Shown here: one piece after another, positions 16,661 to 58,209 of the stretch | Layout: each line of letters starts with the position of its first letter | Numbering within the stretch: position 1 is the stretch's first letter | IMG/VR virus record: IMGVR_UViG_3300048598_000287 | Span: 1-64,000 of that record | Direction: 5' to 3' (one strand) | Origin: a virus | Lineage: Duplodnaviria > Caudoviricetes | DNA: 64,000 nt | The notes under the pieces: generated by a model | Databases searched by the model: none | Told to the model about the DNA's origin: nothing | The model's input: only the letters and a program-made list of their open reading frames with translations | Made by a program: the position numbers and the translations under genes

Positions 16661-16874
16661 TCCACTCCCCATAATGCCCCATATCCTGATGGAGGAATCA
16701 GAATAGGAAAGGATATTCTCTTAGATATCAAACATAGGTTCGAATGTGTTAGGCTGTTTAATGAACTCTTGGAAAAGACTCTAGAGAATCTGTGACATCG
16801 AATGCAAATATGAAATATCCATTGCCAATTGGTAATTAATAATATATATTATGGATATTATACGGAGGTCCAAC

Positions 16875-18032
16875 ATGCCTGAAATTTCTATTAAAGAAGC
16901 AAGAGAGATATATCGTCTAAATCATGAGATGAAATCCCTGATGCTCACTAAATTTCCCAAGGAAATGCTTGAAGCAGATGATTCATCCACCTCTGATAAA
17001 TCGAGTCACATAAATGGAATGATGATTCACTCAAAGGATGAAAATGGATCCGAATGTTGGCAGGATTTCGATAACAATAAAAACCTAGTTCATGAGAAGG
17101 ATTCCGACGGATCCGAACATTGGTACAACTATGATGCCAATGGAATGATGATTCACGCAAAGGATGAAAATGGATTCGACGTGTGGTATGAATATAATGC
17201 GAATGGTAACATTATTCATAAAAAGGATTCCGAGGGGGATGAATATTGGTATGATGCCATAGGAACCCTTATGCATAAGAAGATTTCCGATGGAGACGAA
17301 AGATGGTATGATTCTAATGGGAAAACCTTTCATATTAAGTGGCCCAGCGGAGCTGAATGGTGGTTCGATGCCAATGGAAATAAGATCCATGAGAAGCATT
17401 CCGATGGTCACGAATATTGGTACGATACCAATGGGACTCTGATTCATGAGAAGTCGTCTGATGGGAAATTACTTTATCGGAGGTATTTTGACGGCTCATA
17501 CGTCAGGTGGGAATATGCTACCAATGGGGAATGCAGTCATTATAAGGATTCCTATGGTGTTGAACGCTGGCACGACTACGATGGCAAAGGAAACTTGATC
17601 CATCTAAAAGGGGGCGACGGATATGAAGAATGGTATGACTATGATTCTAAAGGAACCCTGCTTCATATGAAGGATTCCTATGGGCATGATTGTTGGTATG
17701 ATTCTAATGGTAAACATATTCATGAGAAGTCTTCCGACGGATACGAATCGTGGTACGACGATAAGGGCACACTTAGTAGTACGAAAGATGCCTTTGGCCG
17801 AGAATGTAAGTACGATGCCAATGGAAAACTGAGTTATAAGAAGAATTCACATGGAACCGAATGGTGGTTCGATGCCAATGGCCGCCTGATTCATGCAAAA
17901 GATCCGGATGGGTATGAAATGTGGTACGAGTACGATGCCAATGGGAATAAGATTCATTATAAGGATTCCGATGGCGATGAACGCTGGTATGAATACGACG
18001 ATAAGGGGCAAACGTCAGTAAACAAAATTTAA
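16875..18032 (+). CDS. MAELT-type N-terminal module fused to YD-like repeats
   Basis: MPEISIKEAREIY..EMKSLMLTKF followed by repeats. Confidence 0.85.
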   Translation: MPEISIKEAREIYRLNHEMKSLMLTKFPKEMLEADDSSTSDKSSHINGMMIHSKDENGSECWQDFDNNKNLVHEKDSDGSEHWYNYDANGMMIHAKDENGFDVWYEYNANGNIIHKKDSEGDEYWYDAIGTLMHKKISDGDERWYDSNGKTFHIKWPSGAEWWFDANGNKIHEKHSDGHEYWYDTNGTLIHEKSSDGKLLYRRYFDGSYVRWEYATNGECSHYKDSYGVERWHDYDGKGNLIHLKGGDGYEEWYDYDSKGTLLHMKDSYGHDCWYDSNGKHIHEKSSDGYESWYDDKGTLSSTKDAFGRECKYDANGKLSYKKNSHGTEWWFDANGRLIHAKDPDGYEMWYEYDANGNKIHYKDSDGDERWYEYDDKGQTSVNKI

Positions 18033-18092: not shown

Positions 18093-19019
18093 ATGCAAGG
18101 AGTTAACAATATGTATCAGGCAGACATGTTAAATAAATGTAACTGGACGTTCGACTATGATATCAATGGTAACGTTATTCATGCAAAGACCGTGACTGGA
18201 TATGAGGAATGGTATGAATACGATAGAAATGGGAAACTAAAGTATATGAAGAATTCCCGCGGCGCCGAACGATGGTACGATATCAATGGGAATAATTTTT
18301 ACACCCAGTTTTCCGATAGATCCGAAACGTGGTATGATGCCGATGGAAAGGTGATCCATGACAAGCTTTCCACTGGAATAGAATATTGGTATGAATATAA
18401 TTCATTGGGGAACATGATTCATAAGAAGTGTTCCGACGGATCCGAAGAATGGTATGATGCCGATGGGAAAAAGATTCATGCAAAGCATTCCGACGGTTTC
18501 GAATATTGGTATGATGCCGATGGGGAACTGATCCATTATAAGGATTCCGACGGAGATGAATATTGGTATGATGCCATAGGAACCCTTATGCATAAGAAGA
18601 TTTCCGATGGAGAGGAATGGTGGTACGAATACGATGCCAATGGTAAACTGATTCATTATAAGAAATCCGACGGCGATGAATGGTGGTATGAATATGATGC
18701 CTATGGAAATAGTATTTCCGGTGGATCAAAAGAATGGTACAATTCCATTAGTAGCGGTAATCATAATAAGTCTTCCGACGGATCCGAAACCTGGTATGAG
18801 TATGATGCCAATGGAAACATGGTTCATGCGAAAGATTCCGACGGATATGAACAATGGTGGGATTACGATTCCCATGGAAACATAACGCTGATTCGTAAAA
18901 ACTCTTCCGATGGATCCGAATGGCTGTATGATGCCAATAGGCAGCTGGTTAATATCAAGGTAATGCCTTGTATAGCACCACAGTATGTTTCTATTAACCT
19001 TAAGGTAAGCCGTAATTAA
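18093..19019 (+). CDS. YD-like repeat protein
   Basis: Repeats; contains the 30/31-nt match to the spacer at 51584-51614. Confidence 0.85.
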   Translation: MQGVNNMYQADMLNKCNWTFDYDINGNVIHAKTVTGYEEWYEYDRNGKLKYMKNSRGAERWYDINGNNFYTQFSDRSETWYDADGKVIHDKLSTGIEYWYEYNSLGNMIHKKCSDGSEEWYDADGKKIHAKHSDGFEYWYDADGELIHYKDSDGDEYWYDAIGTLMHKKISDGEEWWYEYDANGKLIHYKKSDGDEWWYEYDAYGNSISGGSKEWYNSISSGNHNKSSDGSETWYEYDANGNMVHAKDSDGYEQWWDYDSHGNITLIRKNSSDGSEWLYDANRQLVNIKVMPCIAPQYVSINLKVSRN

Positions 19020-40267: not shown

Positions 40268-41164
40268 TTAATTCTTTTCAATATCAGATAATCGCTTTAG
40301 TGTCGTTTTATAATACTCTTTGTCTTGTTCAATCCCAATATACTTACGATGCAGCTTTAATGCTGCAACAAGTGTCGTCCCGCTACCACAAAACGGGTCT
40401 ACGACGATTTGATTTTCTGTTGTTGTTAATTCAATTAATAATTCCATAAGTTTTAATGGTTTTTGTGTCGGATGCAGTCCAGTATCAGAAGAGGAGGAAG
40501 AAATTGATATAATATTATTTGGATCAAGTCCATACTTAGCAAAAACCTTTTCATTATAGGCACCTACTTCATATTCAAGCATGTTGTCTGCTAAAGTACC
40601 TCCTATTTTATAAGGCTTCTGAAACCAAAGAATAGGCTCAAAAACAGGACGTAAATTTCCAAGTTTCCATCCTTCCCATTTTTCTGCAGACCCCTTATCT
40701 TCTCTTCGTTCATAAACAACACTTATTCTTTGTGCGCGATGAGCAGCTTTCACTTTATCCCAGGCGATCATATCTTTAAATGTAAATCCAGCATCTTCAA
40801 AAGCACATATACAACGAGGGGCAAGTCTTCGACCTGCAAAAACAAAAGCACTTGCACCAGGCTTTAAAACTCTATACCAATCAAACACCCATTCGGAAAC
40901 CCATTCATAATACTGCTTAGCAATCAGTTTATCTTCTTCTGACCATCCATTTAATGGCTTACCTCTTTTTTTAAATATATTACCTGCCTTTTCTTGTGCA
41001 GGACTTGAACCTAGTAATGCACTGTTTGTATTTGTATGCAAAACATCCCACGAATCGAAACTGATACCGTATGGTATATCACTTAAAATTAAATGAACTG
41101 AATTATCTTCAAGTTCTTTCATTTTCTGAATTGAATCAGCACAATAGACAGAATCAAATTTCAT
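40268..41164 (-). CDS. Orphan N4-C/N6-A DNA methyltransferase (beta class)
   Basis: SDIPY catalytic motif, HPTQKP, DPFCGSGTT. Confidence 0.9.
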   Translation of the reverse strand: MKFDSVYCADSIQKMKELEDNSVHLILSDIPYGISFDSWDVLHTNTNSALLGSSPAQEKAGNIFKKRGKPLNGWSEEDKLIAKQYYEWVSEWVFDWYRVLKPGASAFVFAGRRLAPRCICAFEDAGFTFKDMIAWDKVKAAHRAQRISVVYERREDKGSAEKWEGWKLGNLRPVFEPILWFQKPYKIGGTLADNMLEYEVGAYNEKVFAKYGLDPNNIISISSSSSDTGLHPTQKPLKLMELLIELTTTENQIVVDPFCGSGTTLVAALKLHRKYIGIEQDKEYYKTTLKRLSDIEKN

Positions 41165-41210: not shown

Positions 41211-41569
41211 GTACTTCGAATAGCTTATCGAACGTTTTCTTTTCATAAGTGCCTTACTTTTCAGCCTTCATAAGAATATTAGTAAATACCATCAATCCGG
41301 CAAAGAATAATCCTAATAGCATTATTACAACTAGCCAGCCAGATAATTCATTGGCCACTTGTATATTATTTAATAGCAGGTATAATCCCGTGCTAAGGGA
41401 TATAGACATCATCAAACTAGACATTACTAATTTCATATTGATTTCCTTAAGTTTTTACAATTAAATATACATAGAATTTATATTTTTCCACATGGTAAAT
41501 AGCAATATTGCTATTTACTTATCCAATGGGTTATAGTACCATGTATGATGTACTTCAGATATCCACTCA
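41211..41569. repeat. ~359-bp direct repeat, second copy at 44276-44634
   Basis: Near-identical; contains the 60-aa membrane ORFs 41254-41436 and 44319-44501. Confidence 0.85.
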
Positions 41570-41713: not shown

Positions 41714-42631
41714 TTAATAATTTACCATTATGACTTCATGCGTTTCTGTGGATTTCTTTTTAGCTACTTTCTTGTAGTCGTATTCAAGTTCAATCATCTT
41801 GAACTTACCTGATTCCGACAGAAGATCCAGTAGCTTGCATCTTTCATCTCCATGGATGTCCGTTCCGGAAATCATCCATTTGGCATCGGAAAAATCGGAT
41901 ATGAACTTAAAAAGGCGTTCATCATCATTCTGTTTCCAGAATGCGTTATATCCCGCCTCCGTATTGGAATACGGTGGGTCTGCATAGAAGAATACATCGG
42001 ACATGTTTTGGACGCGCATGGAATTTGCTGAAACCGTTTCGAAATCACCCCAGATTATATCCACATTACGTATGGTTTTAAGAAGATTCCGCCACTCGGT
42101 GAGTTTCTTTTCCGTGGATTCATTGTACATACGTTTTCCGCAGGTCTGATTGAATAGCCCATGACGGTTGAACCTCATCATATTGTTTGTGCAGGACAGC
42201 ATGAGCCCGTACAGGCGGTAAGCCTTGTAATTAAGAAACGTGATCTTGTCGTTTATGTACTCCCCGCTTCCGGTAAAGTCGGATGTAAGAAGCGAATTGT
42301 ACTCATCCCGGAGAATCTGATATCTGTCATAGTCTGATGACGAGAACATTTTAAGGCACTCTATTAACCTTGCAAAATCAGTGTCGCTTCCTGTGGAGAG
42401 CACTTTCTGTATCCGTTGAATGTCAAATATATATTCATTAGATACCACATTTTTGAACATCCCTGCCAGATTGAATGACACCGTTCCTGATCCGCTGAAC
42501 AGATCAACAAGGGTCATATTATCAGTAGATTCCGGAAGATGTGCAACTAACTGCGGAAGAAGTTTGAACTTGTTCCCGGTGTAATTGAAAGGTGAATTAA
42601 CGTACATATGAATCCTTTGTGACAATGACAT
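41714..42631 (-). CDS. Dam-like DNA adenine methyltransferase
   Basis: FNYTGNK, DLFSGSG, DPPY. Confidence 0.88.
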   Translation of the reverse strand: MSLSQRIHMYVNSPFNYTGNKFKLLPQLVAHLPESTDNMTLVDLFSGSGTVSFNLAGMFKNVVSNEYIFDIQRIQKVLSTGSDTDFARLIECLKMFSSSDYDRYQILRDEYNSLLTSDFTGSGEYINDKITFLNYKAYRLYGLMLSCTNNMMRFNRHGLFNQTCGKRMYNESTEKKLTEWRNLLKTIRNVDIIWGDFETVSANSMRVQNMSDVFFYADPPYSNTEAGYNAFWKQNDDERLFKFISDFSDAKWMISGTDIHGDERCKLLDLLSESGKFKMIELEYDYKKVAKKKSTETHEVIMVNY

Positions 42632-43995: not shown

Positions 43996-44579
43996 TTAAT
44001 TACCTATTTGGTTAAATCTTCCATTCGAATTCGTCGGAATGCTTCACATTACTAAGCGTTCCATTGACATCGTATTCGTGCCACCTATTTCTGGTTAATC
44101 ACTTTGCAGTACACTTCATAACATCGATTCGCTGCTTTCTCGCGTTCAGATGGACTTTCCCCGGCATCACCATATAGATTATCTATCTTAGTCATCATGT
44201 ATTCCACAGCATAACGCAAATCTACACATTTCTGCCTTAGCCAATTGCCATAGGAATCAGAATCCTTTATTTTAGGTACTTCGAATAGCTTATTGAACGT
44301 TTTCTTTTCATAAGTGCCTTACTTTTCAGCCTTCATAAGAATATTAGTAAATACCATCAATCCAGCAAAGAATAATCCGAATAGCATTATTACAACTAGC
44401 CAGCCAGATAATTCAGTGCAAGTTTGTATATTATTTAATAGCAGGTATAAGCCAGTGCTAAGGGATATAGACATCATCAAACTAGACATTACTAATCTCA
44501 TTTCGATCTCCTTAAGTGTTTACAATTAAATATACATAGAATTTATATTTTTCCACATGGTTAATAGCAATATTGCTAT

Positions 44580-45508: not shown

Positions 45509-46831
45509 GTGAACTACCCTCACCCTAAAGGGAGTGGGCTTCTTTTCGTTTCAACGGATCAGCTATGGAAGTTCCCTGCAAGCAGGGGACGGACAGGAGA
45601 TTCTCGACGGAGGGGCGTTCCGCCCGCTCGGCTCTGTGTGACGAGCCGATCAATAGAATGTTCTTTGCGGCATGAATATCCCTGTCCTCAGTCATGCCGC
45701 AGTCACAGGCGAAGATGCGCTTGCTGGGCGGCATATTGAGGAGGGAGCCGCATGCCGTGCACAGCCGGGTCGTGGGTTCCCATTTTGAGAGTTTAAATGA
45801 TGCAAAGCCTTCTTTCTGGATGAGTTTCTGTTTGATTCTTCCGAGGCATGAATGCTGGACGGCGCGGCCATAGCCGCGGCGTCTGCATCTTTGCCAGGAA
45901 GCGATCTGTTCATCCTGGAAATAGACAAAATCATAATTGGCATAGATCCAGTGAATGATCTTGTTGGCCTTGTCATCCCGCACATTGGATATGTGCTGAT
46001 ATTCACGCCGCACGAGCCGGAGAAGATGATTCCGTCGCTTGGATTCCTTATCGTGCTTCAGTGCCAGATGGCGCTGGAGCCGTGTAAGTTTCTCGGTTTC
46101 TTGCTCGGATACATCGAACTTCGTCCCGTCGGACACGGTCACCGTGTCCTTTATGCCCATGTCAATCCCGCAGGATCTGCCCGTCTTGGGCAAATCAGCG
46201 ATTTTAGCAGTCAGGCAAAGCTTTATATGGAAGCCGTCAGGCTTCCTCAATAGGCAGCTGTCATGCAGCTGATATGATTCAAATTTATTGAGATGTTCCA
46301 GACCGTGAACTTTCAGATTAGGAAATCCCGGGATCGTCATCATTGATCCGCTCTTTATCGTCATTCCCTGATGCCGGATCGGAAGGCTGCTCACCTCGCG
46401 GCGGAATCTCAGCTTCCCTACTTTTCCGCCTTTAAGTTTCTTCTTGTTAAGATTCTTAACGTCTTCCTTAAGTTTCTTTATCAGGTTCTGATGGATTCCG
46501 GTGTTGAGCGTGATCTCACGCTCAACCCGATTGTGTTCACGATCAAAACACAATACCTTGCGGTGCTCATTGTATTTATAACCGAAGATATCACCTGTCG
46601 ATATGGCGTCGTTTATCGACCACTTGGCCTCGACGAAGGCATGAGAAAGACGACGCAAGACGGACTTATCCGTCTTGCGCGCATTTACCTTCAAATCTAT
46701 CTGCCTTATCGCTTCCATCATTTATATAATTTATATCCTTGACTTTAATATACATTTTTATTATACTGTTATCTATGGCGGAATTCATCTCCCCGGACTA
46801 AATTCCGGGAGTTTTCTTCCGCAAATCTCCG
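45509..46831 (-). mobile_element. Non-autonomous IS200/IS605-family (IS1341-like) element
   Basis: tnpB only. Subterminal hairpins at both ends. Right end ...GTAGTTCAC; TTTAT immediately 5' of the left end. Confidence 0.75.
45525..46721 (-). CDS. tnpB: TnpB RNA-guided endonuclease
   Basis: GIDMGIKD (RuvC-I), YFQDE (RuvC-II), CTACG/CDCG zinc finger, DRDIHAAKNI (RuvC-III). Confidence 0.92.
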   Translation of the reverse strand: MMEAIRQIDLKVNARKTDKSVLRRLSHAFVEAKWSINDAISTGDIFGYKYNEHRKVLCFDREHNRVEREITLNTGIHQNLIKKLKEDVKNLNKKKLKGGKVGKLRFRREVSSLPIRHQGMTIKSGSMMTIPGFPNLKVHGLEHLNKFESYQLHDSCLLRKPDGFHIKLCLTAKIADLPKTGRSCGIDMGIKDTVTVSDGTKFDVSEQETEKLTRLQRHLALKHDKESKRRNHLLRLVRREYQHISNVRDDKANKIIHWIYANYDFVYFQDEQIASWQRCRRRGYGRAVQHSCLGRIKQKLIQKEGFASFKLSKWEPTTRLCTACGSLLNMPPSKRIFACDCGMTEDRDIHAAKNILLIGSSHRAERAERPSVENLLSVPCLQGTSIADPLKRKEAHSL

Positions 46832-47057
46832 ATAAACAAATCTTAACCTGCGTCTCAGCCTTGATTTCCGCGTCGCGGCGCTGGAGGTCGGAGTAACATC
46901 ACACAATCTGAACTGGATATTCACCAAGATGGAAAGGCGTTAATAGAATACAACAGGTGTAACATCAGACAAACCGAATCTAATCTTCATCCATTCTTTT
47001 GTACGCATCGCACCGCATGCAGGTGTAACATCAGACAAACCGAATCTAATCTTCATC
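46832..47057 (-). repeat. CRISPR-like mini-array A: 36-nt repeats at 47022, 46956, 46890 plus a degenerate end; three 30-nt spacers
   Basis: Period exactly 66; unique spacers. Confidence 0.85.
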
Positions 47058-47428: not shown

Positions 47429-47451
47429 GGTAGGCCTCCATATAATATTTA

Positions 47452-47601
47452 ATAATCCAATCCGAATCTAATCGTCACCCTAGAAAACGCTCATGATAAA
47501 TCAATACCTGGTGTAACATCATTCAATCCGAACCGGATATTCACTACATGCTCCGTAGTCGGAACGATGTAATATCATCCAATCCGAACACGGTGTTCAC
47601 C
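47452..47601 (-). repeat. Mini-array B: repeats at 47566 and 47510, partial ending 47479; spacers of 20 and 30 nt
   Basis: Visible repeats. Confidence 0.8.
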
Positions 47602-47972
47602 TGATTCTTCATAAGTCGTTGAATCGCATTATCTTGCAATGAATACTTATCCTTGAAAATCTTCCATACCCTAAAATAACTTACCCAAAAATGCTTATTT
47701 TTTCCTGTGAAGAGGATGTCAAACATCCATTCATCATTTGGTTTTCTAAGTTCTCTGCGGTTAGTGGGAAGTTTGCTTTCATAACTATTTTCATCCAAGA
47801 ACACCGTCTTGGTGCATTGTCCAAGTAGTTCCAGGAACGTCTTGTCGAATTCTTCCTGTGTAACCGCATGCTTCTCAAGGTCTTCCTTAGTGAACTTAGT
47901 GAGCATCAGGGATTTCATCTCATCCGATGATGCGTAGATCTTTCTAGCTTCTTCGATTGTCAATCCGGGCAT
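47544..47972 (-). CDS. MAELT-family array-associated protein
   Basis: Paralog. Confidence 0.85.
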   Translation of the reverse strand: MPGLTIEEARKIYASSDEMKSLMLTKFTKEDLEKHAVTQEEFDKTFLELLGQCTKTVFLDENSYESKLPTNRRELRKPNDEWMFDILFTGKNKHFWVSYFRVWKIFKDKYSLQDNAIQRLMKNQVNTVFGLDDITSFRLRSM

Positions 47973-48112
47973 ATTTTATCTCCTTAATATGATGCAATTA
48001 AATATAGATATTTAATTGGTCATTGTCAACTACAAATGATACCAGAATTCGGATCAATTGGAATAATATGTATATCGGGTTTAATGGCCATTAAATTATT
48101 TATAGTCTCTTT

Positions 48113-48215
48113 GCTGTAACATCATCCAGCCCGAATCTAATCTTCACCATGTATCCGACAAATGTCATAATCCGTCTTGATTGTAACATCATCCAATCCG
48201 AACTGGATATTAACC
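48113..48215 (-). repeat. Mini-array C: repeats at 48180 and 48113; 31-nt spacer
   Basis: Visible repeats. Confidence 0.8.
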
Positions 48216-48586
48216 TGATTTTTCATAAGTCGTTGAATATCAATATCGTACATCGAATAGGTATCCACGAAAATCTTCCATACACGGTAATGACTTACCC
48301 AGAACCGCTTATTTTTCCCGGTGAACTTAATATCAATCATCCATTCGTTATTAGAATTTCTTAGTTCTATCGTGTTTGTGGGAAGATTGCTTTTTTCACC
48401 ATATTCATTCAGGAACGCAATCTTGGTGCATTGACCCAGTAATTTCAGGAACGTCTCGTCGAATTCTTCCTGAGTAACCGCATGCTTCTCAAGGTCTTCC
48501 TTAGTGAACTTGGTGAGCATCAGAGATTTCATCTCATCCGATGATGCATAGATCTTTCTTGCTTCTTCAATAGTCAATTCGGGCAT
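48137..48586 (-). CDS. MAELT-family array-associated protein
   Basis: Paralog; start MPELT. Confidence 0.85.
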   Translation of the reverse strand: MPELTIEEARKIYASSDEMKSLMLTKFTKEDLEKHAVTQEEFDETFLKLLGQCTKIAFLNEYGEKSNLPTNTIELRNSNNEWMIDIKFTGKNKRFWVSHYRVWKIFVDTYSMYDIDIQRLMKNQVNIQFGLDDVTIKTDYDICRIHGED

Positions 48587-48626
48587 ATTACATCTCCGTT
48601 GATATCTTAAATATATTAGCCAAGGA

Positions 48627-49043
48627 TTAAACGGGTATTTTTCCATAACGGTATTTAATGAATTTCAAATCATTTTCATCAATATAGCCATCCTGGATGA
48701 GGTTGTTACCGATTGCCTGCTCATCATACCACTTTTCATATGTATCGGGCATATCCCTATTTTTTATATATTCGTCTAAAGTCTCATTATAGCCTTCATA
48801 TTTTTTCCATTCATCGTTGAAAACGAATCCTTTTGCATTTAATTCATGTTCTGAAAGAACGAATTCTTCACACAGGTCAGGTTTTATTATGCAAACCCAT
48901 TGCCACCTAGGTTCAGCATCGCAAGTATAGTTCAGCTGAGAAAGCAAATGCATAGAAGGGAAAATATATTTCGTTCCGGAAAACCGATATACGGGAGCAT
49001 CAAAATATGTGTCTAAAAGTTTACTTTTACATTGTGCTTTCAT
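48627..49043 (-). CDS. Hypothetical protein
   Basis: ORF. Confidence 0.6.
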   Translation of the reverse strand: MKAQCKSKLLDTYFDAPVYRFSGTKYIFPSMHLLSQLNYTCDAEPRWQWVCIIKPDLCEEFVLSEHELNAKGFVFNDEWKKYEGYNETLDEYIKNRDMPDTYEKWYDEQAIGNNLIQDGYIDENDLKFIKYRYGKIPV

Positions 49044-49059
49044 AAATAGATACCTTCTG

Positions 49060-49144
49060 TTTCAATGTTTCCATAGCAGCATGCTAGGGTTTTAGTTAGC
49101 TTCATCTAGATAGTTCTCGCGTATTCAATCGTCAACTCGGTCAT
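49060..49144 (-). pseudogene. Decayed MAELT-family 5' fragment
   Basis: MTELTIEYARTI-stop after the family RBS GGAGGCCTACC and a terminal-repeat remnant. Confidence 0.6.
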
Positions 49145-49883
49145 GGTAGGCCTCCGTATAATATTTAATTATCCAATCAAATCCTGTTATTCATCCTGGT
49201 ATTTCTTAGATGCATCACATGTTATTGTCGGATAGTTAGGAAACTCATAGAACTTCAGTGGTTTTATGTTTGGTGTGTCAAATGGGCCTCGCAATGCCCA
49301 GTGAATTCCGTCATTGTCGTTCGCCTGTTTCTTCAATTCTTCCAGCGAAAACAAATATTCAATGAGGGCCACCTTTTCCGCATTGCTTAGGGAATCTGAT
49401 GTCATGATTAGGGTCTTCAGTTTTTCTGAACTATTCATATTATCATTCATTTAATTATCCTTTCCTGGAATATATTTCCAAGTTCAATCTGGTGATTGGT
49501 AATTCAATCTCTATAGGTAAACTATATTTTCTGCGATACCGTTACGATAGGAATTCACGGTACTGTCCGTTTCTGGGTGTTCTAATGTGGGAAATGACGT
49601 ATGTCAATATCAACCGATATAGATTTCGCAGATTCGTTAGTTACAATCAATGCATATTGTTCTCTACCGTTAATTATTGTAGATGTGTATTTTGTCACAC
49701 GCATCGACTTAGCAATGGACATGGTGTCAATATCTATTTCAGCATCGCCGGCTATTTTACGGGAATCAATGATATATGCAGAAAATTTTGAGCCCGATAA
49801 TACATTCACCGATGTCCATCCCGTGATAGAAATAGGCAAATTTACGGCGATCAATTTATTAGGACCTAGGATAGCCATTTAGC

Positions 49884-50306
49884 TCAGCCTCCGCCTTGTA
49901 CACAGTTCGCATACGGTTCGTTAAGTGGATGAATGGATAGCGTACCCCAGGCGTTTGGTTCACGACAAGTACGGGATTTAATCTGTGCCATAGCTTCTTC
50001 GGTAGTATGCGCTATGGCAAATGCCACGCCACGTGTATAAGCTGAGCAAAAATCTGTCCAGACAAATAACCGTAAGTTTTCGTTCATAATAATCTTAGGT
50101 ACTTCATCTGGAATAGTTGGCGCTGAGATAGTCGATCTAGACGATAATCCTTTGAAACCATACCATTTGTCGCGTTTCTGAACGGTTTCCGAATATATAT
50201 CAAGACATCCCTTTAGATATTCTGCCAGAACAAAATCAGGCGTATCCGATTCGTTTTCCTTACTGTACTTATTGATCAGCAATTCAAGCTCATTTTCAAA
50301 TTCCAT
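49884..50306 (-). CDS. Two-module hypothetical protein (C-terminal module shared with 37725-37925)
   Basis: LRLFVW..FC..YT.G.AFAIA in both. Confidence 0.65.
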   Translation of the reverse strand: MEFENELELLINKYSKENESDTPDFVLAEYLKGCLDIYSETVQKRDKWYGFKGLSSRSTISAPTIPDEVPKIIMNENLRLFVWTDFCSAYTRGVAFAIAHTTEEAMAQIKSRTCREPNAWGTLSIHPLNEPYANCVQGGG

Positions 50307-50333
50307 TATCGTCCTCTATGTAAAATATCAATT

Positions 50334-50532
50334 GATGTGACATCATCCAATCATAACCGGATATTCACTACATGCTCCGTAGTCGGAACGATGTAATATC
50401 ATCCAATCCGAACACGGTGTTCACCCACTGATTGATACATATCCTGATGGAGGAATGTGTTCACCCACTGATTGATACATATCCTGATGGAGGAATGATG
50501 TAATATCATCCAATCCGAACACGGTATTCACC
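50334..50532 (-). repeat. Mini-array E: repeats at 50497, 50390, 50334; a duplicated 31-nt spacer and a 20-nt spacer
   Basis: Visible repeats. Confidence 0.85.
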
Positions 50533-50904
50533 TGATTCTTCATAAGTCGTTGAATCGCATCATCTTGTAATGAATATGTATTCGCAAAAATCTTCCATAT
50601 CCTAAAATAACTTACCCAGAAATGTTTATTTTTTTCCTGTGAAGAGGATGTCAAACATCCATTCATCATTTGGGTTTCTAAGTTCTATACGATTGGTGGG
50701 AAGCTTGCTTTTATAACCATGTTCATTCAGAAACACCGTATTTGTGCATTGTCCAAGTAGTTCCAGGAACGTCTTATCAAATTCTTCCTGAGTAACCTCA
50801 TGTTTCTCAAGTTCACTTTTAGAGAACTTGGTGAGCATCAGGGATTTCATCTCATCCGATGATGTGTAAATCTTTCTTGCTTCTTCAATAGAAATTTCTG
50901 CCAT
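50421..50904 (-). pseudogene. MAELT-family gene with +1 frameshift in an A7 run (50629-50635)
   Basis: The paralog at 47544 has A6; the two ORF halves reconstitute a full protein. Confidence 0.8.
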
Positions 50905-50926
50905 AGTAGACATCCTTATAGTTAAT

Positions 50927-51096
50927 CACCAATACGAACATTGCAATCAGCCTAGAAAGCGAGCATGATAACTACCTGATGTAACATCAGTCAATCCGAA
51001 CAGAGGGTTCACCTCCCGTTCCATTATGCACGTCCGTGAAACGGGTCCTACAGGCCCCACATTGTAACATCATCCAATCCGAATCTAATCTTCACC
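50927..51096 (-). repeat. Mini-array F: repeats at 51061 and 50978, partial ending 50951; spacers of 47 and 26 nt
   Basis: Visible repeats. Confidence 0.75.
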
Positions 51097-51497: not shown

Positions 51498-51718
51498 AAT
51501 CCGAACTGGATATTCATCTGATTCCAAAGGATCTGAACGGCGGCACGGATGTAATATCATCCAATCCGAACTGGTTATTCATCTATGATATCAATGGGAA
51601 CGTTATTCATGCAAGGTGTAACATCATTCAATCCGAATCTAATCTTCACCCAAGTTTCTGAGCAACCCGTATGATTTTCCTTGGTGTAACATCATTCAAT
51701 CCGAATCTAATCTTCACC
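51498..51718 (-). repeat. Mini-array G: repeats at 51683, 51615, 51548, partial ending 51518; spacers of 32, 31 and 29 nt
   Basis: Visible repeats. Confidence 0.88.
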
Positions 51719-52156: not shown

Positions 52157-52417
52157 TCATTTCATATCAAGATGACTAGATATGTATGAATGTACACTTT
52201 TCCAAAGCTGGTCCACATCCGAATCGCATCGTACGATTACGTCAGCAACTTTCTGCTTATTGATGTGCACGGACACCTGACCAGTTGAATCCGATATCGT
52301 AATCGAATCTTCACCTGATCCGTAAAAAATAACATGGACGGCGTCGCCTACTGTCACATGCATGATACGTACGGCATTGATGAAGATTTGATCATCAGTT
52401 ATCACACTTATTTTCAT
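52157..52417 (-). CDS. Hypothetical protein
   Basis: RBS GGAGG. Confidence 0.6.
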   Translation of the reverse strand: MKISVITDDQIFINAVRIMHVTVGDAVHVIFYGSGEDSITISDSTGQVSVHINKQKVADVIVRCDSDVDQLWKSVHSYISSHLDMK

Positions 52418-52487
52418 ATGTTCCCTCCTGTATTGAGCTCTAGCTCAGAATACCTATAATGAATCATATTTCCATTGACATCATACA

Positions 52488-53081
52488 TTAATACCACCAT
52501 TCATGTCCATCTGACCTTTTATTATGAATAATGCTCCCATCGGCATCGTACCAATCTTCATGCCCATAGGAATCCTTATAATGAATGCATTTTCCATCGG
52601 AATCGTAATCCCACCAGTGTTCATATCCGTCAGTAAGTTTCTTATGAATGCATTTTCCATCGGAATCATAGTAATACCATATTTCTGATCCGTCGGTATC
52701 CTTATAGCGAATCGGCTTCCCGCTCTCATCAAACCAATGTTCGGATCCGTTGGAATTTTTCGTATAGATCAGTTTTCCATTGGCATCGTACCACCATTCG
52801 AATCCATCTGAGGCCGTATAATGAATAAGATGCCGATTTCCATAGGAATCATATTCATACCATTTTTCAGATCCGTTGGGATACTTCGTATGAATCATGT
52901 TCCCATCGGCATCGTACCACAATTCATTACCCATTAAATCCTTCAGATGACTCGATTTATCAGAGTCCGATGAATCATCGGCTTCAAGGATTTTCTTGGA
53001 GAATTTGGTGAGCATCAGGGATTTCAGCGCATCAGAGTTGTGATAGATATTTCTTGCTTCTTTAATAGTCAATTCCGCCAT
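52488..53081 (-). CDS. MAELT N-terminal module fused to YD-like repeats
   Basis: MAELTIKEARNIY..KSLMLTKF followed by repeats. Confidence 0.85.
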   Translation of the reverse strand: MAELTIKEARNIYHNSDALKSLMLTKFSKKILEADDSSDSDKSSHLKDLMGNELWYDADGNMIHTKYPNGSEKWYEYDSYGNRHLIHYTASDGFEWWYDANGKLIYTKNSNGSEHWFDESGKPIRYKDTDGSEIWYYYDSDGKCIHKKLTDGYEHWWDYDSDGKCIHYKDSYGHEDWYDADGSIIHNKRSDGHEWWY

Positions 53082-53181
53082 GGTAGGCCTCCTTAAATAA
53101 TGATAAATCATAATTGATATTTAACTATCTTCCATTATGATATGTTGTAGATTCAATTAAAATATATGAAATTCTCCTTTG

Positions 53182-53925
53182 TCACTCAACTTTTTCTGCA
53201 TGACCAGAATACTCAACGAACTGATTGAATAGCTTTCTGGCAAGGCATCCTAATTCACCGCATTCATCACCATCAAGAAGCCCGAGATCTATAGCGTCCA
53301 TCTGATCCTTGAAATCATCGTAGTCTGCATATCCGCGCTTCAAGATGTCGGTAAGGATAGATAGCACGGCAGCCTTGCACGCATGCTGGTCCAGATATCC
53401 CCGCTCTTTATATTTGAATGTCCTGATTAGGCTGGAAAGAGGGTATTCGGAATGAATATATTCACTTCTTCTGGTCAAGAGATATTTCATATAATTATCA
53501 GTGAACTTAACATCTGATATATAATGTAATATTCCAGGTTCCCTATGCCTGACTTCCACACCTACCTGAACATGTGAAAAATCAAAGGTATTGATTAGTT
53601 GGTCAAGCGTAGGCTGGCGGTAAGAACAGAACTGCACCGGATAAGGGAACGTTTTCATGCGGACCGTGATTGCATTCTTCGTAGTGCTCAATACATCTAC
53701 TTCGGATATGTTATTCATCCGAAGGCGAAAATCTTCTCCGAATTCGTCCGAATCTGAGCCAGGATATACGTCGATATCATGCGGAGTATCTACGTTGCAT
53801 GAATTACCGGCGATGCGTACAGGATGATCAATCCCAATAGCATTGAACAACGCAGAAGGAATACGATACATCATTCTGCTCCTGATTTCATTAATAACTA
53901 GGTCATTCATAAATCTATAATACAT
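53182..53925 (-). CDS. Phage nucleotidyltransferase-like protein
   Basis: IAGNS..PHDIDVY, FDFSHVQ, RTFKYKERGY. Confidence 0.65.
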   Translation of the reverse strand: MYYRFMNDLVINEIRSRMMYRIPSALFNAIGIDHPVRIAGNSCNVDTPHDIDVYPGSDSDEFGEDFRLRMNNISEVDVLSTTKNAITVRMKTFPYPVQFCSYRQPTLDQLINTFDFSHVQVGVEVRHREPGILHYISDVKFTDNYMKYLLTRRSEYIHSEYPLSSLIRTFKYKERGYLDQHACKAAVLSILTDILKRGYADYDDFKDQMDAIDLGLLDGDECGELGCLARKLFNQFVEYSGHAEKVE

Positions 53926-54066
53926 AATGCTGTCCTTTGCTTAAAATATGAATATAATCAGTTTTCCACGCTAAATATAGCATATTATCAACACATTGTA
54001 AATCAATTTCAGAAATATTGATAAAATCATATTGAATTTTCATATATATTTTCTATATTTAACGGT

Positions 54067-54783
54067 ATGAAAACTATTAGATTCAATACATTTGAAACAA
54101 ATTCCAGCTCAACACATGCGCTTGCCATATGCAAGAAACCCCGCACGGGCGAAGAATTCACCGATCCGGACGAGTACGGAATTCTATGGATACGGCTTGA
54201 CAAATATTTCACCTCAACCCATCAGATATGTTATAATGAGGGGTATATCGACACCGGGGAAACATGTAGCTATGATGTATCCACCCAAATAAAATATCTT
54301 GTGACTCAGGCAGTATCATCGGCGATTAATAAATGCTGTAACAATAAAGGAAATGATTATGATAAGGCATACATCCAGATGCAACGGAATCTTTCCATTC
54401 TGAGACGTAAAATAATAGCTCCTGTATATTCCGAGCTGAATATGGATCTCGTTAAAAGTATAACCCCATATTATCTATTGGACGGCAAGCGGGTGATAAT
54501 ATCCGCATCCAGCATGCCTAAGCTATATGGCATGGGAATAGGGATTGATCCCGATGACATGTATAGCGATGATTTCGCGAGTGCCATTCGCACACAGGTA
54601 GAGGACTATTCTAATTTACATTGGAAACGCAAAACCACCCTTGAAGAAGCGATTGGCATATCGGGCGAAATAGATCGTCAATATGGAAAAAACTATGATA
54701 AGAGAACTATAGCTGAACTGACATTCAAGCTATGGCGCCTATCACTGACACACTATAGCGTGCAATATTTCTATCATACATGA
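54067..54783 (+). CDS. Phage hypothetical protein (FETNSSSTH family)
   Basis: N-terminal IRxxxFETNSSSTH motif. Confidence 0.75.
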   Translation: MKTIRFNTFETNSSSTHALAICKKPRTGEEFTDPDEYGILWIRLDKYFTSTHQICYNEGYIDTGETCSYDVSTQIKYLVTQAVSSAINKCCNNKGNDYDKAYIQMQRNLSILRRKIIAPVYSELNMDLVKSITPYYLLDGKRVIISASSMPKLYGMGIGIDPDDMYSDDFASAIRTQVEDYSNLHWKRKTTLEEAIGISGEIDRQYGKNYDKRTIAELTFKLWRLSLTHYSVQYFYHT

Positions 54784-55008: not shown

Positions 55009-55443
55009 ATGGCTGAATTGACAATTGAAGAAGCCCGAAAGATCTACGCAACAACGGATGATATGAAATCCCTGATGCTTACTAAGTTCTCTAAAAGTGA
55101 ACTTGAGAAACATGAGGTTACACAGGAAGAATTCGATAAGACCTTCCTGAGATTACTTGGGCAATGCACCAAGACTGTGTTCCTGGATGAAGCGGGTGAT
55201 GAAAGCCCGCTTCCCACTAACCGTATCGAACTCAGAAATTCAGATAACGAATGGATGTTTGACATCCAGTTCACTGGTAAAAATAAGCATTTCTGGGTAC
55301 ATTATTCTCGGGTATGGTGGATTTTCAAGGATAATGATTCATTGCAATATGAAGATATTGTACGACTTATGAAGAATCAGATGAACTCACGGTTCGGATT
55401 GGCTGATGTTAAACCCCTAATTAAGGAAATCATATTTTTTTAA
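55009..55443 (+). CDS. MAELT-family array-associated protein
   Basis: Paralog. Confidence 0.85.
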   Translation: MAELTIEEARKIYATTDDMKSLMLTKFSKSELEKHEVTQEEFDKTFLRLLGQCTKTVFLDEAGDESPLPTNRIELRNSDNEWMFDIQFTGKNKHFWVHYSRVWWIFKDNDSLQYEDIVRLMKNQMNSRFGLADVKPLIKEIIFF

Positions 55444-55510
55444 CACCCGGTTCGGATTGGGTGATGTTCAATCCATAACGGGATGAATAACATGGTTGGA
55501 TTGGATTATT
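55380..55510 (+). repeat. Mini-array H (degenerate): repeats at 55380, ~55438, partial at 55482
   Basis: Visible repeats. Confidence 0.7.
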
Positions 55511-55532: not shown

Positions 55533-55961
55533 ATGGCTGAATTGACAATTGAAGAAGCTAGGAAGATCTACGCATCATCGGATGAGATGAAATCGCTGAT
55601 GCTCACCAAGTTCTCTAAAGCCGAATTAGAGAAACACAACCTTACACAGGAAGAATTTGATAAGATCTTCCTGGAATTGCTTGGCCAATGTATTAAGACC
55701 GTGTTCCTGGATAAACACGGTCATGAAAATAAGATTCCTAATAACCGGGTAAGATTAATAGATGCCACTGATAATTGGCTGTTTGATATTCAATTCACAG
55801 GAAAAGATAAGCATTTCTGGGTAAGTAATTCCCGGATATGGAATTGTTTAGCGGATACATATTCATTGAACTATAGTGATATCCAACGACTTATGAAAAA
55901 TCAGATGAACACCCGGTTCGGAATGGGTGATGTTACACCCTTCATTTTTTCACATACGTAG
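55533..55961 (+). CDS. MAELT-family array-associated protein
   Basis: Paralog. Confidence 0.85.
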   Translation: MAELTIEEARKIYASSDEMKSLMLTKFSKAELEKHNLTQEEFDKIFLELLGQCIKTVFLDKHGHENKIPNNRVRLIDATDNWLFDIQFTGKDKHFWVSNSRIWNCLADTYSLNYSDIQRLMKNQMNTRFGMGDVTPFIFSHT

Positions 55962-56053: not shown

Positions 56054-56482
56054 ATGGCTGAATTGACAATTGAAGAAGCCAGGAAGATCTATGCAACAAC
56101 GGATGATATGAAATCCCTGATGCTCACCAAATTCACTAAGGAAGCCCTTGAGAAGCATGAAGTTACTCAGGAAGAATTCGATAAGATCTTCCTGGAATTG
56201 CTTGGCCAATGCTCCAAGACGGCGTTTCTGAATGAAGTGGGTGATGAAAGCCAGCTTCCCAATAACCGTATAGAACTCAGAAATTCAGATAACGAATGGA
56301 TGTTTGACATCCAGTTCACTGGTAAAAATAAGCATTTCTGGGTACATTATTCTCGTGTATGGAAGATTTTCATGAATACTTATTCGTTGGAAGATGTTGA
56401 TATTAAACTACTTATGAAGAATAAGATACATATTAGGTTCGGATTGGATGATGTTACCCCTTGTAGTTATTGGAAATGTTGA
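56054..56482 (+). CDS. MAELT-family array-associated protein
   Basis: Paralog. Confidence 0.85.
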   Translation: MAELTIEEARKIYATTDDMKSLMLTKFTKEALEKHEVTQEEFDKIFLELLGQCSKTAFLNEVGDESQLPNNRIELRNSDNEWMFDIQFTGKNKHFWVHYSRVWKIFMNTYSLEDVDIKLLMKNKIHIRFGLDDVTPCSYWKC

Positions 56483-56592
56483 TCTGCGAAGATACATATT
56501 AGGTTCGGATTGGATGATGTTACCCCAGAGACGGCTATGCTGACGCGGCAGTAGAAGATACATATTAGGTTCGGATTGGATGATGTTACACC
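56425..56592 (+). repeat. Mini-array J: GATACATATTAGGTTCGGATTGGATGATGTTACMCC at 56425, 56491, 56557; two 30-nt spacers
   Basis: Period exactly 66. Confidence 0.9.
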
Positions 56593-56655: not shown

Positions 56656-58209
56656 ATGGCTGAATTGACGATTGAAGAAGCAAGAAAGATCTACGCATCA
56701 TCGGATGATATGAAATCCCTGATGCTCACCAAATTCACTAAGGAAGACCTTGAAGAGGATTATACATCGTCCTCTTATGATAACCAGAATCACGGGCATG
56801 ATTCCCAGGGTAATGATTTTTGGTGCGATATCAATGGGAACGTAATTCATAAGAAAGCTCCAAATGGATTCGAAGCATGGTTCAATACAGATGGAAAAGT
56901 GATTCATAAGAAGCATTCTGACGGGTTTGAGGAATGGGTTGACTATGATTCTTATGGAAGAACTAATCATGTGAACGATTCCGATGGGTCAGAACGCTGG
57001 TACGAATACAATGCTAATGGGACAATATCACACGCTAAGTTTTCTGATGGGGAGGAATGGTGGTGCAATATCAATGGAAATAAGAGTCATTCCAAGTGGT
57101 CCGACGGATCCGAATCGTGGTACGATGCCAATGGAAATGACATTCATGGAAAAAATTCCGATGGATCGGAATGCTGGCATGATTTTGATAGCAATAAAAA
57201 ACTGATTCATAAGAAGTATTCCAATGGATTGGAAGAGTGGTATGATGCCACGGGGAATATGATCCGGTTGAAAGATTCCCTCGGATATGAAATGCGGTAT
57301 GAATATGATGCCAATGGCCACCTCATGCGCGAGAAGGATTCCTTAGGATGGGAAAAGTGGTGTGAATATGATGCCAACGGGCATCTGATTCACTCAAAGG
57401 ATTCAAATGGATTCGAACGGATGCATGAATATGCTACCGATGGGCACCGCATTCATGAGAAGGATTCGGACGGGCGCGAAAAATGGTATGATGCCAATGG
57501 AAAAATCATTCATTCTAAGTCTTCCGACGGAGTAGAAAAGTGCGAATCATGGTTCGATACCAATGGAAAACTGATTCACTTGAAATGTTCCGACGGTTTC
57601 GAATATTGGTATGATGCCGATGGGGAACTGATCCATTATAAGGATTCCGACGGAGATGAATATTGGTATGATGCCATAGGAACCCTTATGCATAAGAAGA
57701 TTTCCGATGGATCAGAAGAATGGTATGAATATAATGCTAATGGAAGGCTAATTTATGCAAATAATTCCGATGGATTTGAATCTTGGTATGAATATGGAGC
57801 CAATGGGCGAATGATTCATAATAAGACTTACGATGGATCAGAAGAATGGTATGCTACCGATGGGCACCGCATTCATGAGAAGGATTCGGACGGTTTCGAA
57901 TATTGGTATGATGCCAATGGGAATATCATTCATGAAAAGGATTCCGATGGATCAGAAGGTTGGCGGGATTTTGATAACAATAAAAAATTGATTCATAAGA
58001 AGTATTCCGACGGATTAGAACACTGGTATGATGCCAATGGGAACGTAATTCATAAGAAAAATCCAAATGAATTAGAATATTGGTGGAAATATGATGCCGA
58101 TGGGAAATTGAGTAATGAAATATGTTCTGATGGGTCAACCCGATGGTATTCTTATGATGCCCATGGGAATATGATTCATATGAAGATTTCCAATAGAACA
58201 TCTATTTGA
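56656..58209 (+). CDS. MAELT N-terminal module fused to a long YD-like repeat region
   Basis: MAELTIEEARKIY followed by ~22 repeats. Confidence 0.88.
   Translation: MAELTIEEARKIYASSDDMKSLMLTKFTKEDLEEDYTSSSYDNQNHGHDSQGNDFWCDINGNVIHKKAPNGFEAWFNTDGKVIHKKHSDGFEEWVDYDSYGRTNHVNDSDGSERWYEYNANGTISHAKFSDGEEWWCNINGNKSHSKWSDGSESWYDANGNDIHGKNSDGSECWHDFDSNKKLIHKKYSNGLEEWYDATGNMIRLKDSLGYEMRYEYDANGHLMREKDSLGWEKWCEYDANGHLIHSKDSNGFERMHEYATDGHRIHEKDSDGREKWYDANGKIIHSKSSDGVEKCESWFDTNGKLIHLKCSDGFEYWYDADGELIHYKDSDGDEYWYDAIGTLMHKKISDGSEEWYEYNANGRLIYANNSDGFESWYEYGANGRMIHNKTYDGSEEWYATDGHRIHEKDSDGFEYWYDANGNIIHEKDSDGSEGWRDFDNNKKLIHKKYSDGLEHWYDANGNVIHKKNPNELEYWWKYDADGKLSNEICSDGSTRWYSYDAHGNMIHMKISNRTSI

Follow-up and report, generated by a model that had tools for sequence, protein, structure and literature searches.

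Repeats at the 3' ends of a family of phage genes

Analysis of a 64,000-nucleotide stretch of tailed-phage DNA (the window) revealed a family of small genes that are followed by short arrays of repeats and spacers. The window is the first 64 kb of a single linear virus contig from IMG/VR (record IMGVR_UViG_3300048598_000287, here G000), which has a length of 277,197 bp, a GC content of 41%, and a completeness of ~66% according to CheckV. Nine paralogous genes encoding proteins of ~140 amino acids (aa) are located within 46.8 to 56.7 kb, and a tenth is located at 83 kb. All ten proteins share the N terminus MAELTIEEARKIY.., and the open reading frame (ORF) is intact in nearly all copies. Neither the paralogs nor ten distant homologs could be assigned to a family in Pfam or PHROGs.

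The last 12 codons of each paralog constitute a 36-nt repeat (..VKIRFGLDDVTP and variants), which encodes residues 125 to 136 of the conserved protein and is preceded by the codons for ..IQRLMKNQ. Downstream of each gene, zero to three further repeat copies are found, with spacers between them, and the series closes with a partial repeat copy that enters the ribosome-binding site of the next gene. The repeat core occurs ~25 times in the 277 kb of G000, exclusively behind members of this gene family. The repeat ends are inverted (GGTG...CACC), and the sequence varies between paralogs in the first 12 nt. Comparison of the second repeat (R2) with the in-gene repeat (R1) revealed 36/36 identical positions in arrays A, G, J, and K and 35/36 in array E; the distal repeats differ at 5 to 12 positions. 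Spacers flanked by identical repeats are 29 to 32 nt long, and older spacers of 20, 22, and 47 nt deviate from this length. The arrays thus consist of direct repeats of constant length and unique spacers of similar length, as do CRISPR arrays.

An AlphaFold model of a paralog (pLDDT 85) places the repeat at the end of the last helix and in a lower-confidence unstructured tail. Fold searches with this model were uninformative (best E value of 0.17 with Foldseek against the PDB; best Z score of 4.5 with VIA). The ESM Atlas gave no match when searched by features, and a search by shape gave three unnamed virus-only clusters with TM scores of 0.51 to 0.56 by query. The N-terminal ~30 residues of the paralogs (MAELTIEEARKIY..LMLTKF) recur at the N terminus of YD/RHS-repeat proteins encoded at 52488 to 53111 (minus strand), 56656 to 58209 (plus strand), 16836 to 18032 (plus strand), and ~85.1 kb of the genome; this is an N-terminal module shared by unrelated protein bodies.

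Spacers shared by arrays B, E, and F

Paralog B (142 aa) is encoded at 47544 to 47972 on the minus strand, as are the other genes and arrays of this paragraph. Its last 12 codons form R1 of array B (VNTVFGLDDITS; 47566 to 47601). This repeat is followed by the 20-nt spacer ACATGCTCCGTAGTCGGAAC (47546 to 47565), by R2, which belongs to a different variant (VNIR..; 47510 to 47545), by a 30-nt distal spacer (47480 to 47509), and by the terminal partial repeat that enters the ribosome-binding site of paralog A (47444 to 47479). Array E, behind paralog E (50421 to 50913), starts with R1 (50497 to 50532), which is followed by a 31-nt proximal spacer. This spacer is present twice (50426 to 50496) as a result of an exact 40-nt tandem duplication (50417 to 50456 and 50457 to 50496). 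Next are R2 (50390 to 50425), identical to R1 of array B, the same 20-nt spacer as in array B (50370 to 50389), and a degenerate third repeat that holds a stop codon (50334 to 50369). Array F (50978 to 51096) comprises R1 (51061 to 51096), a 47-nt spacer (51014 to 51060), and R2 (50978 to 51013), beyond which lies a 26-nt distal spacer (50952 to 50977). Between these loci lies paralog C with its array (48137 to 48586; R1 at 48180 to 48215, spacer at 48149 to 48179, and R2 at 48113 to 48148).

Two features of these loci are atypical. The 47-nt spacer of array F has an unusual length, and within it lies an inverted repeat (CCCGTT..AACGGG); rather than a captured spacer, this element may represent a hairpin of the terminator type. 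In this record only, a one-base frameshift in an A/T run (50626 to 50640, at the A run near 50629) splits paralog E; sister contigs and two aligned sequencing runs are one base shorter and encode an intact 160-aa protein, so the frameshift may be an assembly error or a strain-specific slip.

The preliminary description of this DNA had noted that the 20-nt spacer is first in array B and second in array E, where an additional unit lies on the gene side, and that the distal spacers of arrays B and F are diverged homologs. These observations were reproduced. The distal spacers (30 and 26 nt) align with one 4-nt gap and have a common origin in 30 nt of a 499-aa ORF (228365 to 228394 of the genome). 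The spacer of array B matches this source at 29/30 positions; the spacer of array F retains the source base at the differing position and has lost 4 nt. A chance origin of the 20-nt identity between arrays B and E is negligible, and the block at 47509 to 47601 shows 95% identity over 93 nt to the block at 50333 to 50425. Directly upstream of the arrays, paralogs B and E are 91 to 93% identical. The paralogs are mosaics, as illustrated by paralogs F and A, which are 95 to 98% identical over the first 180 nt and 68 to 85% identical beyond, and gene bodies occur on foreign arrays (proteins P0012 and P0041 and contig L005). Because of this mosaicism and these exchanged gene bodies, the units common to arrays B, E, and F are taken to be inherited blocks, consisting of a gene 3' end plus its array, that arose by block duplication or gene conversion and not by repeated capture. 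Array E gained its proximal units after the block was copied, and other strains gained different units in the same slot. The sharing of spacers, from which the preliminary description had deduced polarized acquisition, is accounted for by block copying; the polarity was borne out by the comparison of strains described below.

The same features raise the question of whether any acquisition took place. The arrays could be products of unequal recombination, gene conversion, and deletion among tandem paralogs, or artefacts of assembly. The mosaic paralogs, the gene bodies swapped onto foreign arrays, one deletion of distal units, and a block that is inverted in some strains between oppositely oriented paralogs fit this explanation, which also accounts for the spacers shared by arrays B, E, and F. 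It fails for the proximal units. The sequence of each new proximal spacer is unique and is bordered by exact repeat copies, and several of these spacers are exact-length copies of distant phage genes with unrelated flanks. Alternative spacers of one slot were never found together, and the same variants recur in independent samples and studies. For the proximal units this explanation is already contradicted, and we regard it as highly improbable overall.

Comparison of array variants between strains

To compare orthologous loci across strains, a protein search was performed, which identified 253 close homologs in wastewater and sewage assemblies. About 40 contigs were examined, and ordered spacer lists were tabulated for each array. 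Arrays with a common trailer differed at the gene-proximal slot. The differences consisted of the presence or absence of units, of nested series, and of alternative spacers on common distal ones.

Array G (51548 to 51718, minus strand; R1 at 51683 to 51718, R2 at 51615 to 51650, and R3 at 51548 to 51583) contains spacer s10 alone in 11 contigs, s32 ahead of s10 in this record, and x1 and x2 ahead of s10 in contig L056. Its proximal spacer (51651 to 51682) was found in this record only, and its other spacer (51584 to 51614) is a 30/31 copy of positions 18156 to 18186. Array J (56425 to 56592, plus strand) has three repeats and two 30-nt spacers in this record (s30 ahead of s21), and its proximal unit is missing from sister contigs; the other states were no spacer (protein P0018), s21 alone, and a new spacer ahead of s21 (L057). 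In J-like arrays, s24 was found alone (L043) or behind a new spacer (L059 to L061). For array F, a base state and two different additional 30-nt units on the gene side were detected, one each in L038 and L039. Array I (55904 to 55939, plus strand) is represented by the in-gene repeat alone in this record, and four sister contigs have one additional unit (s14). Array K, outside the window at 82.7 to 82.9 kb, has two alternative first spacers on two common ones. The proximal slot of array E holds at least three alternative spacers among strains, three of them on the common 20-mer and the third of these from a separate sequencing run. A 141-aa paralog is followed by s04, by s08 and s04, or by s07, s09, or s25 on s08 and s04. 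Array A (46890 to 47057, minus strand; three repeats, with R1 identical to R2, and two 30-nt spacers) has gained one unit on top of its two spacers in L005. The remaining array of the cluster, array H (55380 to 55473, plus strand), consists of the in-gene repeat, a 22-nt spacer, and a degenerate repeat.

For arrays with one or two existing spacers, 18 insertions were inferred, and every one of them (18/18) occurred in gene-proximal slot 1. With every repeat an equal target, the probability of this outcome, calculated as the product of 1/(n+1), is ~1e-7. Neither of two opposing patterns, variants that differ by deletions only or gains at the distal end, was seen in the ~40 contigs; the sole nonproximal change was the deletion of two distal units in L011. 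The C-terminal tails of 120 listed proteins, which are encoded by the first spacer, showed the same nested patterns. A 1,701-bp segment between arrays (48600 to 50300) is 100% identical in seven contigs that differ in their arrays. This result indicates a turnover of units that outpaces the accumulation of point substitutions.

Duplication of the in-gene repeat and proposed role of the gene end

The preliminary description had proposed that the in-gene repeat is duplicated at the gene end, and the strain comparison agrees with this: each new unit includes an exact copy of the current in-gene repeat. This was the case even where the older repeats belong to another variant (L005, G, and A). In L005, a gene with another repeat variant is located on the old spacers of array A, and the single new unit copies the new variant. 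When the identity of neighboring copies was extended, the most frequent duplication length was 36 bp; 17/22 units have a period of 66 bp (36 plus 30), and the range is 65 to 68 bp. In one aligned contig, the alignment skipped 68 bp, and 36 bases fitted either side of the joint. Leader-end addition with duplication of the first repeat, as in CRISPR arrays, was thus found in 18/18 insertions. It had also been stated that the second repeats of arrays A, E, G, and J nearly match the in-gene variant and that distal repeats decay. The first part holds for the arrays listed above; much of the apparent decay, by contrast, is a record of earlier in-gene repeat variants that were left behind after a gene-body swap.

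Inserts are taken by the in-gene copy alone, even though second and third repeats can be identical to R1. Since these identical repeats receive nothing, the specificity must come from the upstream gene end (..CTTATGAAGAATCA). The suggestion that the coding sequence serves as leader gains support from this pattern and from the conservation of the upstream codons. The 8 codons preceding the repeat have a mean third-codon entropy of 0.28, and repeat codons 4 to 10 have a value of 0.29; the corresponding values are 0.73 for the gene body and 1.24 for the first four codons of the repeat. The coding sequence just upstream of the first repeat would thus function as the leader, as judged from these sequence comparisons. 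The leaders of canonical CRISPR arrays are noncoding; here both leader and first repeat lie in a gene.

According to another explanation, the system is encoded by the phage, the selected product is the protein with its new C-terminal tail, and the older units are unused fossils. The insertion point is constant, right after the ..VTP codons, across the diverged family, and the tail following the last helix is unstructured in the AlphaFold model. The arrays remain short (one to three units), and spacers copied from the phage's own genes are tolerated. On the other hand, the tails look random, and many stop after 3 to 8 residues; inserts of 29, 31, and 32 nt shift the frame and run into stops within the next repeat. 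A selective benefit was not apparent, and the data can be accounted for without this reading. We consider this explanation improbable. A reading of the units as RiPP precursors or repeated peptides was rejected because spacers of 29, 31, and 32 nt break the frame. A diversity-generating retroelement or a shufflon was likewise rejected, as no reverse transcriptase was found and the repeats are direct.

Origin of the spacers

Seven of 40 distinct spacers matched G000 outside the arrays, six of them over their full length and with unrelated flanks, which shows that spacers derive from other DNA. The sources are located at ~18, 159, 191, 228, 238, and 257 kb, as well as in genes of the YD-repeat family. 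The three perfect matches all involve slot 1 of sister strains. Relative to the covering ORF, two spacers are in sense and four in antisense orientation. Phage DNA was captured from either strand, and the source is therefore DNA and not transcripts of one strand. The 33 unmatched spacers have a mean GC content of 49%, compared with 41% for 30-mers of the phage (p = 4e-5) and 40% for the matched spacers. This difference makes a second, GC-richer source of DNA likely, perhaps the host. None of the ~17 spacers of this record matches its own genome perfectly, in numbers too small for a claim of avoidance.

Matches in other collections were also sought. INPHARED phages gave no match to the 5.4-kb region or to the three arrays searched with short queries. 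IMG/VR contained no relatives detectable by protein pattern or repeat core and no match to three proximal spacers of this record. Two sister-strain arrays searched against Escherichia coli genomes and PLSDB plasmids gave chance-level matches only.

Conservation in a wider protein family

A profile search of 1.84 billion cluster representatives identified 192 members at E ≤ 1e-3, most of which have a related motif (..VEEHFKLKGVTP) at the C terminus. Among the best 150 representatives, 20 repeat the C-terminal motif at a spacing of exactly 22 aa (66 nt); this recurrence is the visible in-frame subset of arrays. The DNA of a very distant member (L062) contains a different 36-nt repeat that ends in ACACC, 30-nt spacers, a 66-nt period, and a similar leader. 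From this it follows that the link between gene and array is old and conserved, as is its geometry. The conservation of this geometry in distant members argues against accidental mimicry of the CRISPR locus of one host. A broader alignment of distant homologs could not be used to search for loci because of its diversity. Three long distant members, P0148 (760 aa), P0196 (588 aa), and P0223 (563 aa), contain five tandem matches to the C-terminal half of the profile (~78 to 154) and could be domain arrays or read-through products of several gene copies.

Search for the integration machinery

Taken together, the loci are very probably CRISPR-like arrays that are active and that have both leader and first repeat within a protein-coding gene. 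Several observations weigh against this interpretation. Gains were told from losses by parsimony and not by means of a rooted strain tree, and the data are metagenome contigs, mostly from mixed populations; all runs that contain the locus consist of DNA contigs. The fusion of the terminal partial repeat to the ribosome-binding site of the next gene has an origin that the model does not explain. A conserved hairpin was looked for among the repeat variants, and none was found. The six protospacers revealed no clear protospacer-adjacent motif; a T-rich 5' flank (ttc, tcc, tct, or tta) is present in four of them, and a 3' G in four. Finally, searches for Cas1, Cas2, RVT_1, rve, the tyrosine recombinase family Phage_integrase, and Y1_Tnp in the 277 kb of G000, ~66% of the phage, detected none of these, and the Cas1 and Cas2 families (PF01867 and PF09827) gave no match even at E ≤ 1.

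With no adaptation genes found in the phage record, the arrays might be virus-borne mini-CRISPR arrays served by the host, whose Cas1-Cas2 would read the gene end and the repeat as a leader-repeat junction; host effectors may then use the spacers against competing phages. The 36/30 geometry and the GGTG...CACC ends resemble those of several CRISPR types. A precedent is provided by the cas-less arrays of SPV1 and SPV2, which have leaders and show spacer turnover (PMC6858448). The absence of perfect self-matches among the ~17 spacers of this record, compared with the three perfect matches of sister-strain spacers, also fits the targeting of relatives, albeit in small numbers. A host counterpart did not emerge from the searches, however. 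When 185,579 species genomes of GTDB were scanned for exact copies of the 20-nt repeat core, a search that misses diverged repeats, six single matches (about the number expected by chance) and no array were found. In JGI metagenomes, the core was found only in phage relatives, with no long array, and no CRISPR-DR family of Rfam matched the repeat. The repeat moreover differs between paralogs in its first 12 nt, and distant members with another repeat keep the 36-plus-30 geometry, which would be unexpected if the systems of different hosts were copied. We consider integration by the host rather unlikely.

We tentatively consider a form of DNA capture that is borne by the phage and independent of Cas1-Cas2, while holding it to be less than probable. 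A widespread family of small proteins restricted to Uroviricota would carry the integration site in its last 12 codons, and a dedicated integrase, possibly the protein itself or a partner, would add 30-bp fragments with a 36-bp target duplication. Such a system would either have arisen in parallel with CRISPR adaptation or be an ancestor-like relative of it.

Irrespective of its origin, the integrase is proposed to insert a DNA fragment of ~30 bp at the junction of the conserved gene end (..CTTATGAAGAATCA) and the first repeat. The insertion would duplicate the 36-bp in-gene repeat, as staggered cuts at both repeat borders followed by fill-in would do. Each event would move the older units away from the gene and rewrite the disordered C-terminal tail of the protein. 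Distal units would not be renewed; they would decay, be lost occasionally by recombination between repeats, and retain the repeat variant that the gene carried when they were made. Paralogs exchange segments, so that the gene 3' end and the array can be copied as a block, and the copies then gain different proximal spacers. The spacers may also serve as guides.

A TnpB-like gene (IS605 OrfB/Cas12f-like TNB) is located directly behind array A (45525 to 46721, minus strand), with a GC-rich hairpin upstream. Identical 398-aa copies of TnpB are found elsewhere in the sister contigs L019, L030, and L059, which indicates that the element is mobile. TnpB was rejected as a partner of the arrays because IS605-type insertions also occur at other sites in sister contigs, without a specific link. 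The record contains two TnpB-like ORFs; both are IS-type insertions, and nothing ties them to the arrays.

Comparison with known systems

The arrays resemble the products of leader-end integration by Cas1-Cas2 in having 36-nt direct repeats and ~30-nt spacers. As in CRISPR arrays, units join at one end beside a conserved flank, and the first repeat is duplicated each time; trailer-end spacers are common between strains and leader-end spacers vary; the distal repeats have degenerated, and recombination between repeats occasionally removes units. Unlike in CRISPR arrays, the leader and the first repeat are a gene 3' end, so that insertions alter the protein tail, and at least 10 short arrays are located behind paralogs, each with its own repeat variant. 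The 277 kb of G000 yielded no cas gene, and many spacers copy the genome of their carrier.

The mini-CRISPR arrays of the Sulfolobales viruses SPV1 and SPV2 are cas-less, contain one or two spacers, and are preceded by leaders (Medvedeva et al. 2019, PMC6858448). They share with the arrays described here the short cas-less design with a leader, the turnover of spacers between close strains, and spacers that match related viruses. The SPV arrays lie between genes and have repeats and leaders that match those of host arrays, whereas the repeat studied here is coding and no host counterpart was found. SPV spacers avoid self-matches (PMC6858448). Solitary repeat units and RNA anti-CRISPRs of phages are reported to mimic known host repeats and to act as decoys (Camara-Wilpert et al. 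2023, PMC10651486). They are likewise phage-borne CRISPR-type repeats without cas genes, and they differ from the present arrays, which grow and for which no mimicked host repeat was found. These loci are distinguished from CRISPR and SPV1/SPV2 arrays by a leader and repeat that are coding, by the large number of paralogous arrays, and by the absence of a detected host counterpart.

Polarized, ruler-like integration of spacers has, to our knowledge, so far been tied to Cas1-Cas2 and noncoding leaders. Here the same dynamics are seen inside a coding gene, in a cas-less region of a giant sewage phage of lytic type, and they recur across a diverged family of phage proteins. If a host enzyme is responsible, phages are able to maintain numerous growing arrays under the guise of gene ends; if the phage is responsible, a new adaptation machinery and possibly a DNA-recording tool are at hand. 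In either case, the arrays are a fast-evolving strain marker and a record of the DNA met by the phage.

Other features of the window

A four-gene block (52157 to 54783; 86, 207/197, 247, and 238 aa) is located between oppositely oriented paralogs and is inverted in some strains. It was compared with L003, L004, L007, L010, and L029; the gene order of this record is kept in L005, L006, and L011. The inversion looks like the result of recombination between the inverted paralogs. Two near-identical segments of ~216 nt (41249 to 41464 and 44314 to 44529), which contain ORFs of 71 and 60 aa on opposite strands, are located 3 kb apart near two DNA methyltransferase genes (40268 to 41164 and 41714 to 42631).

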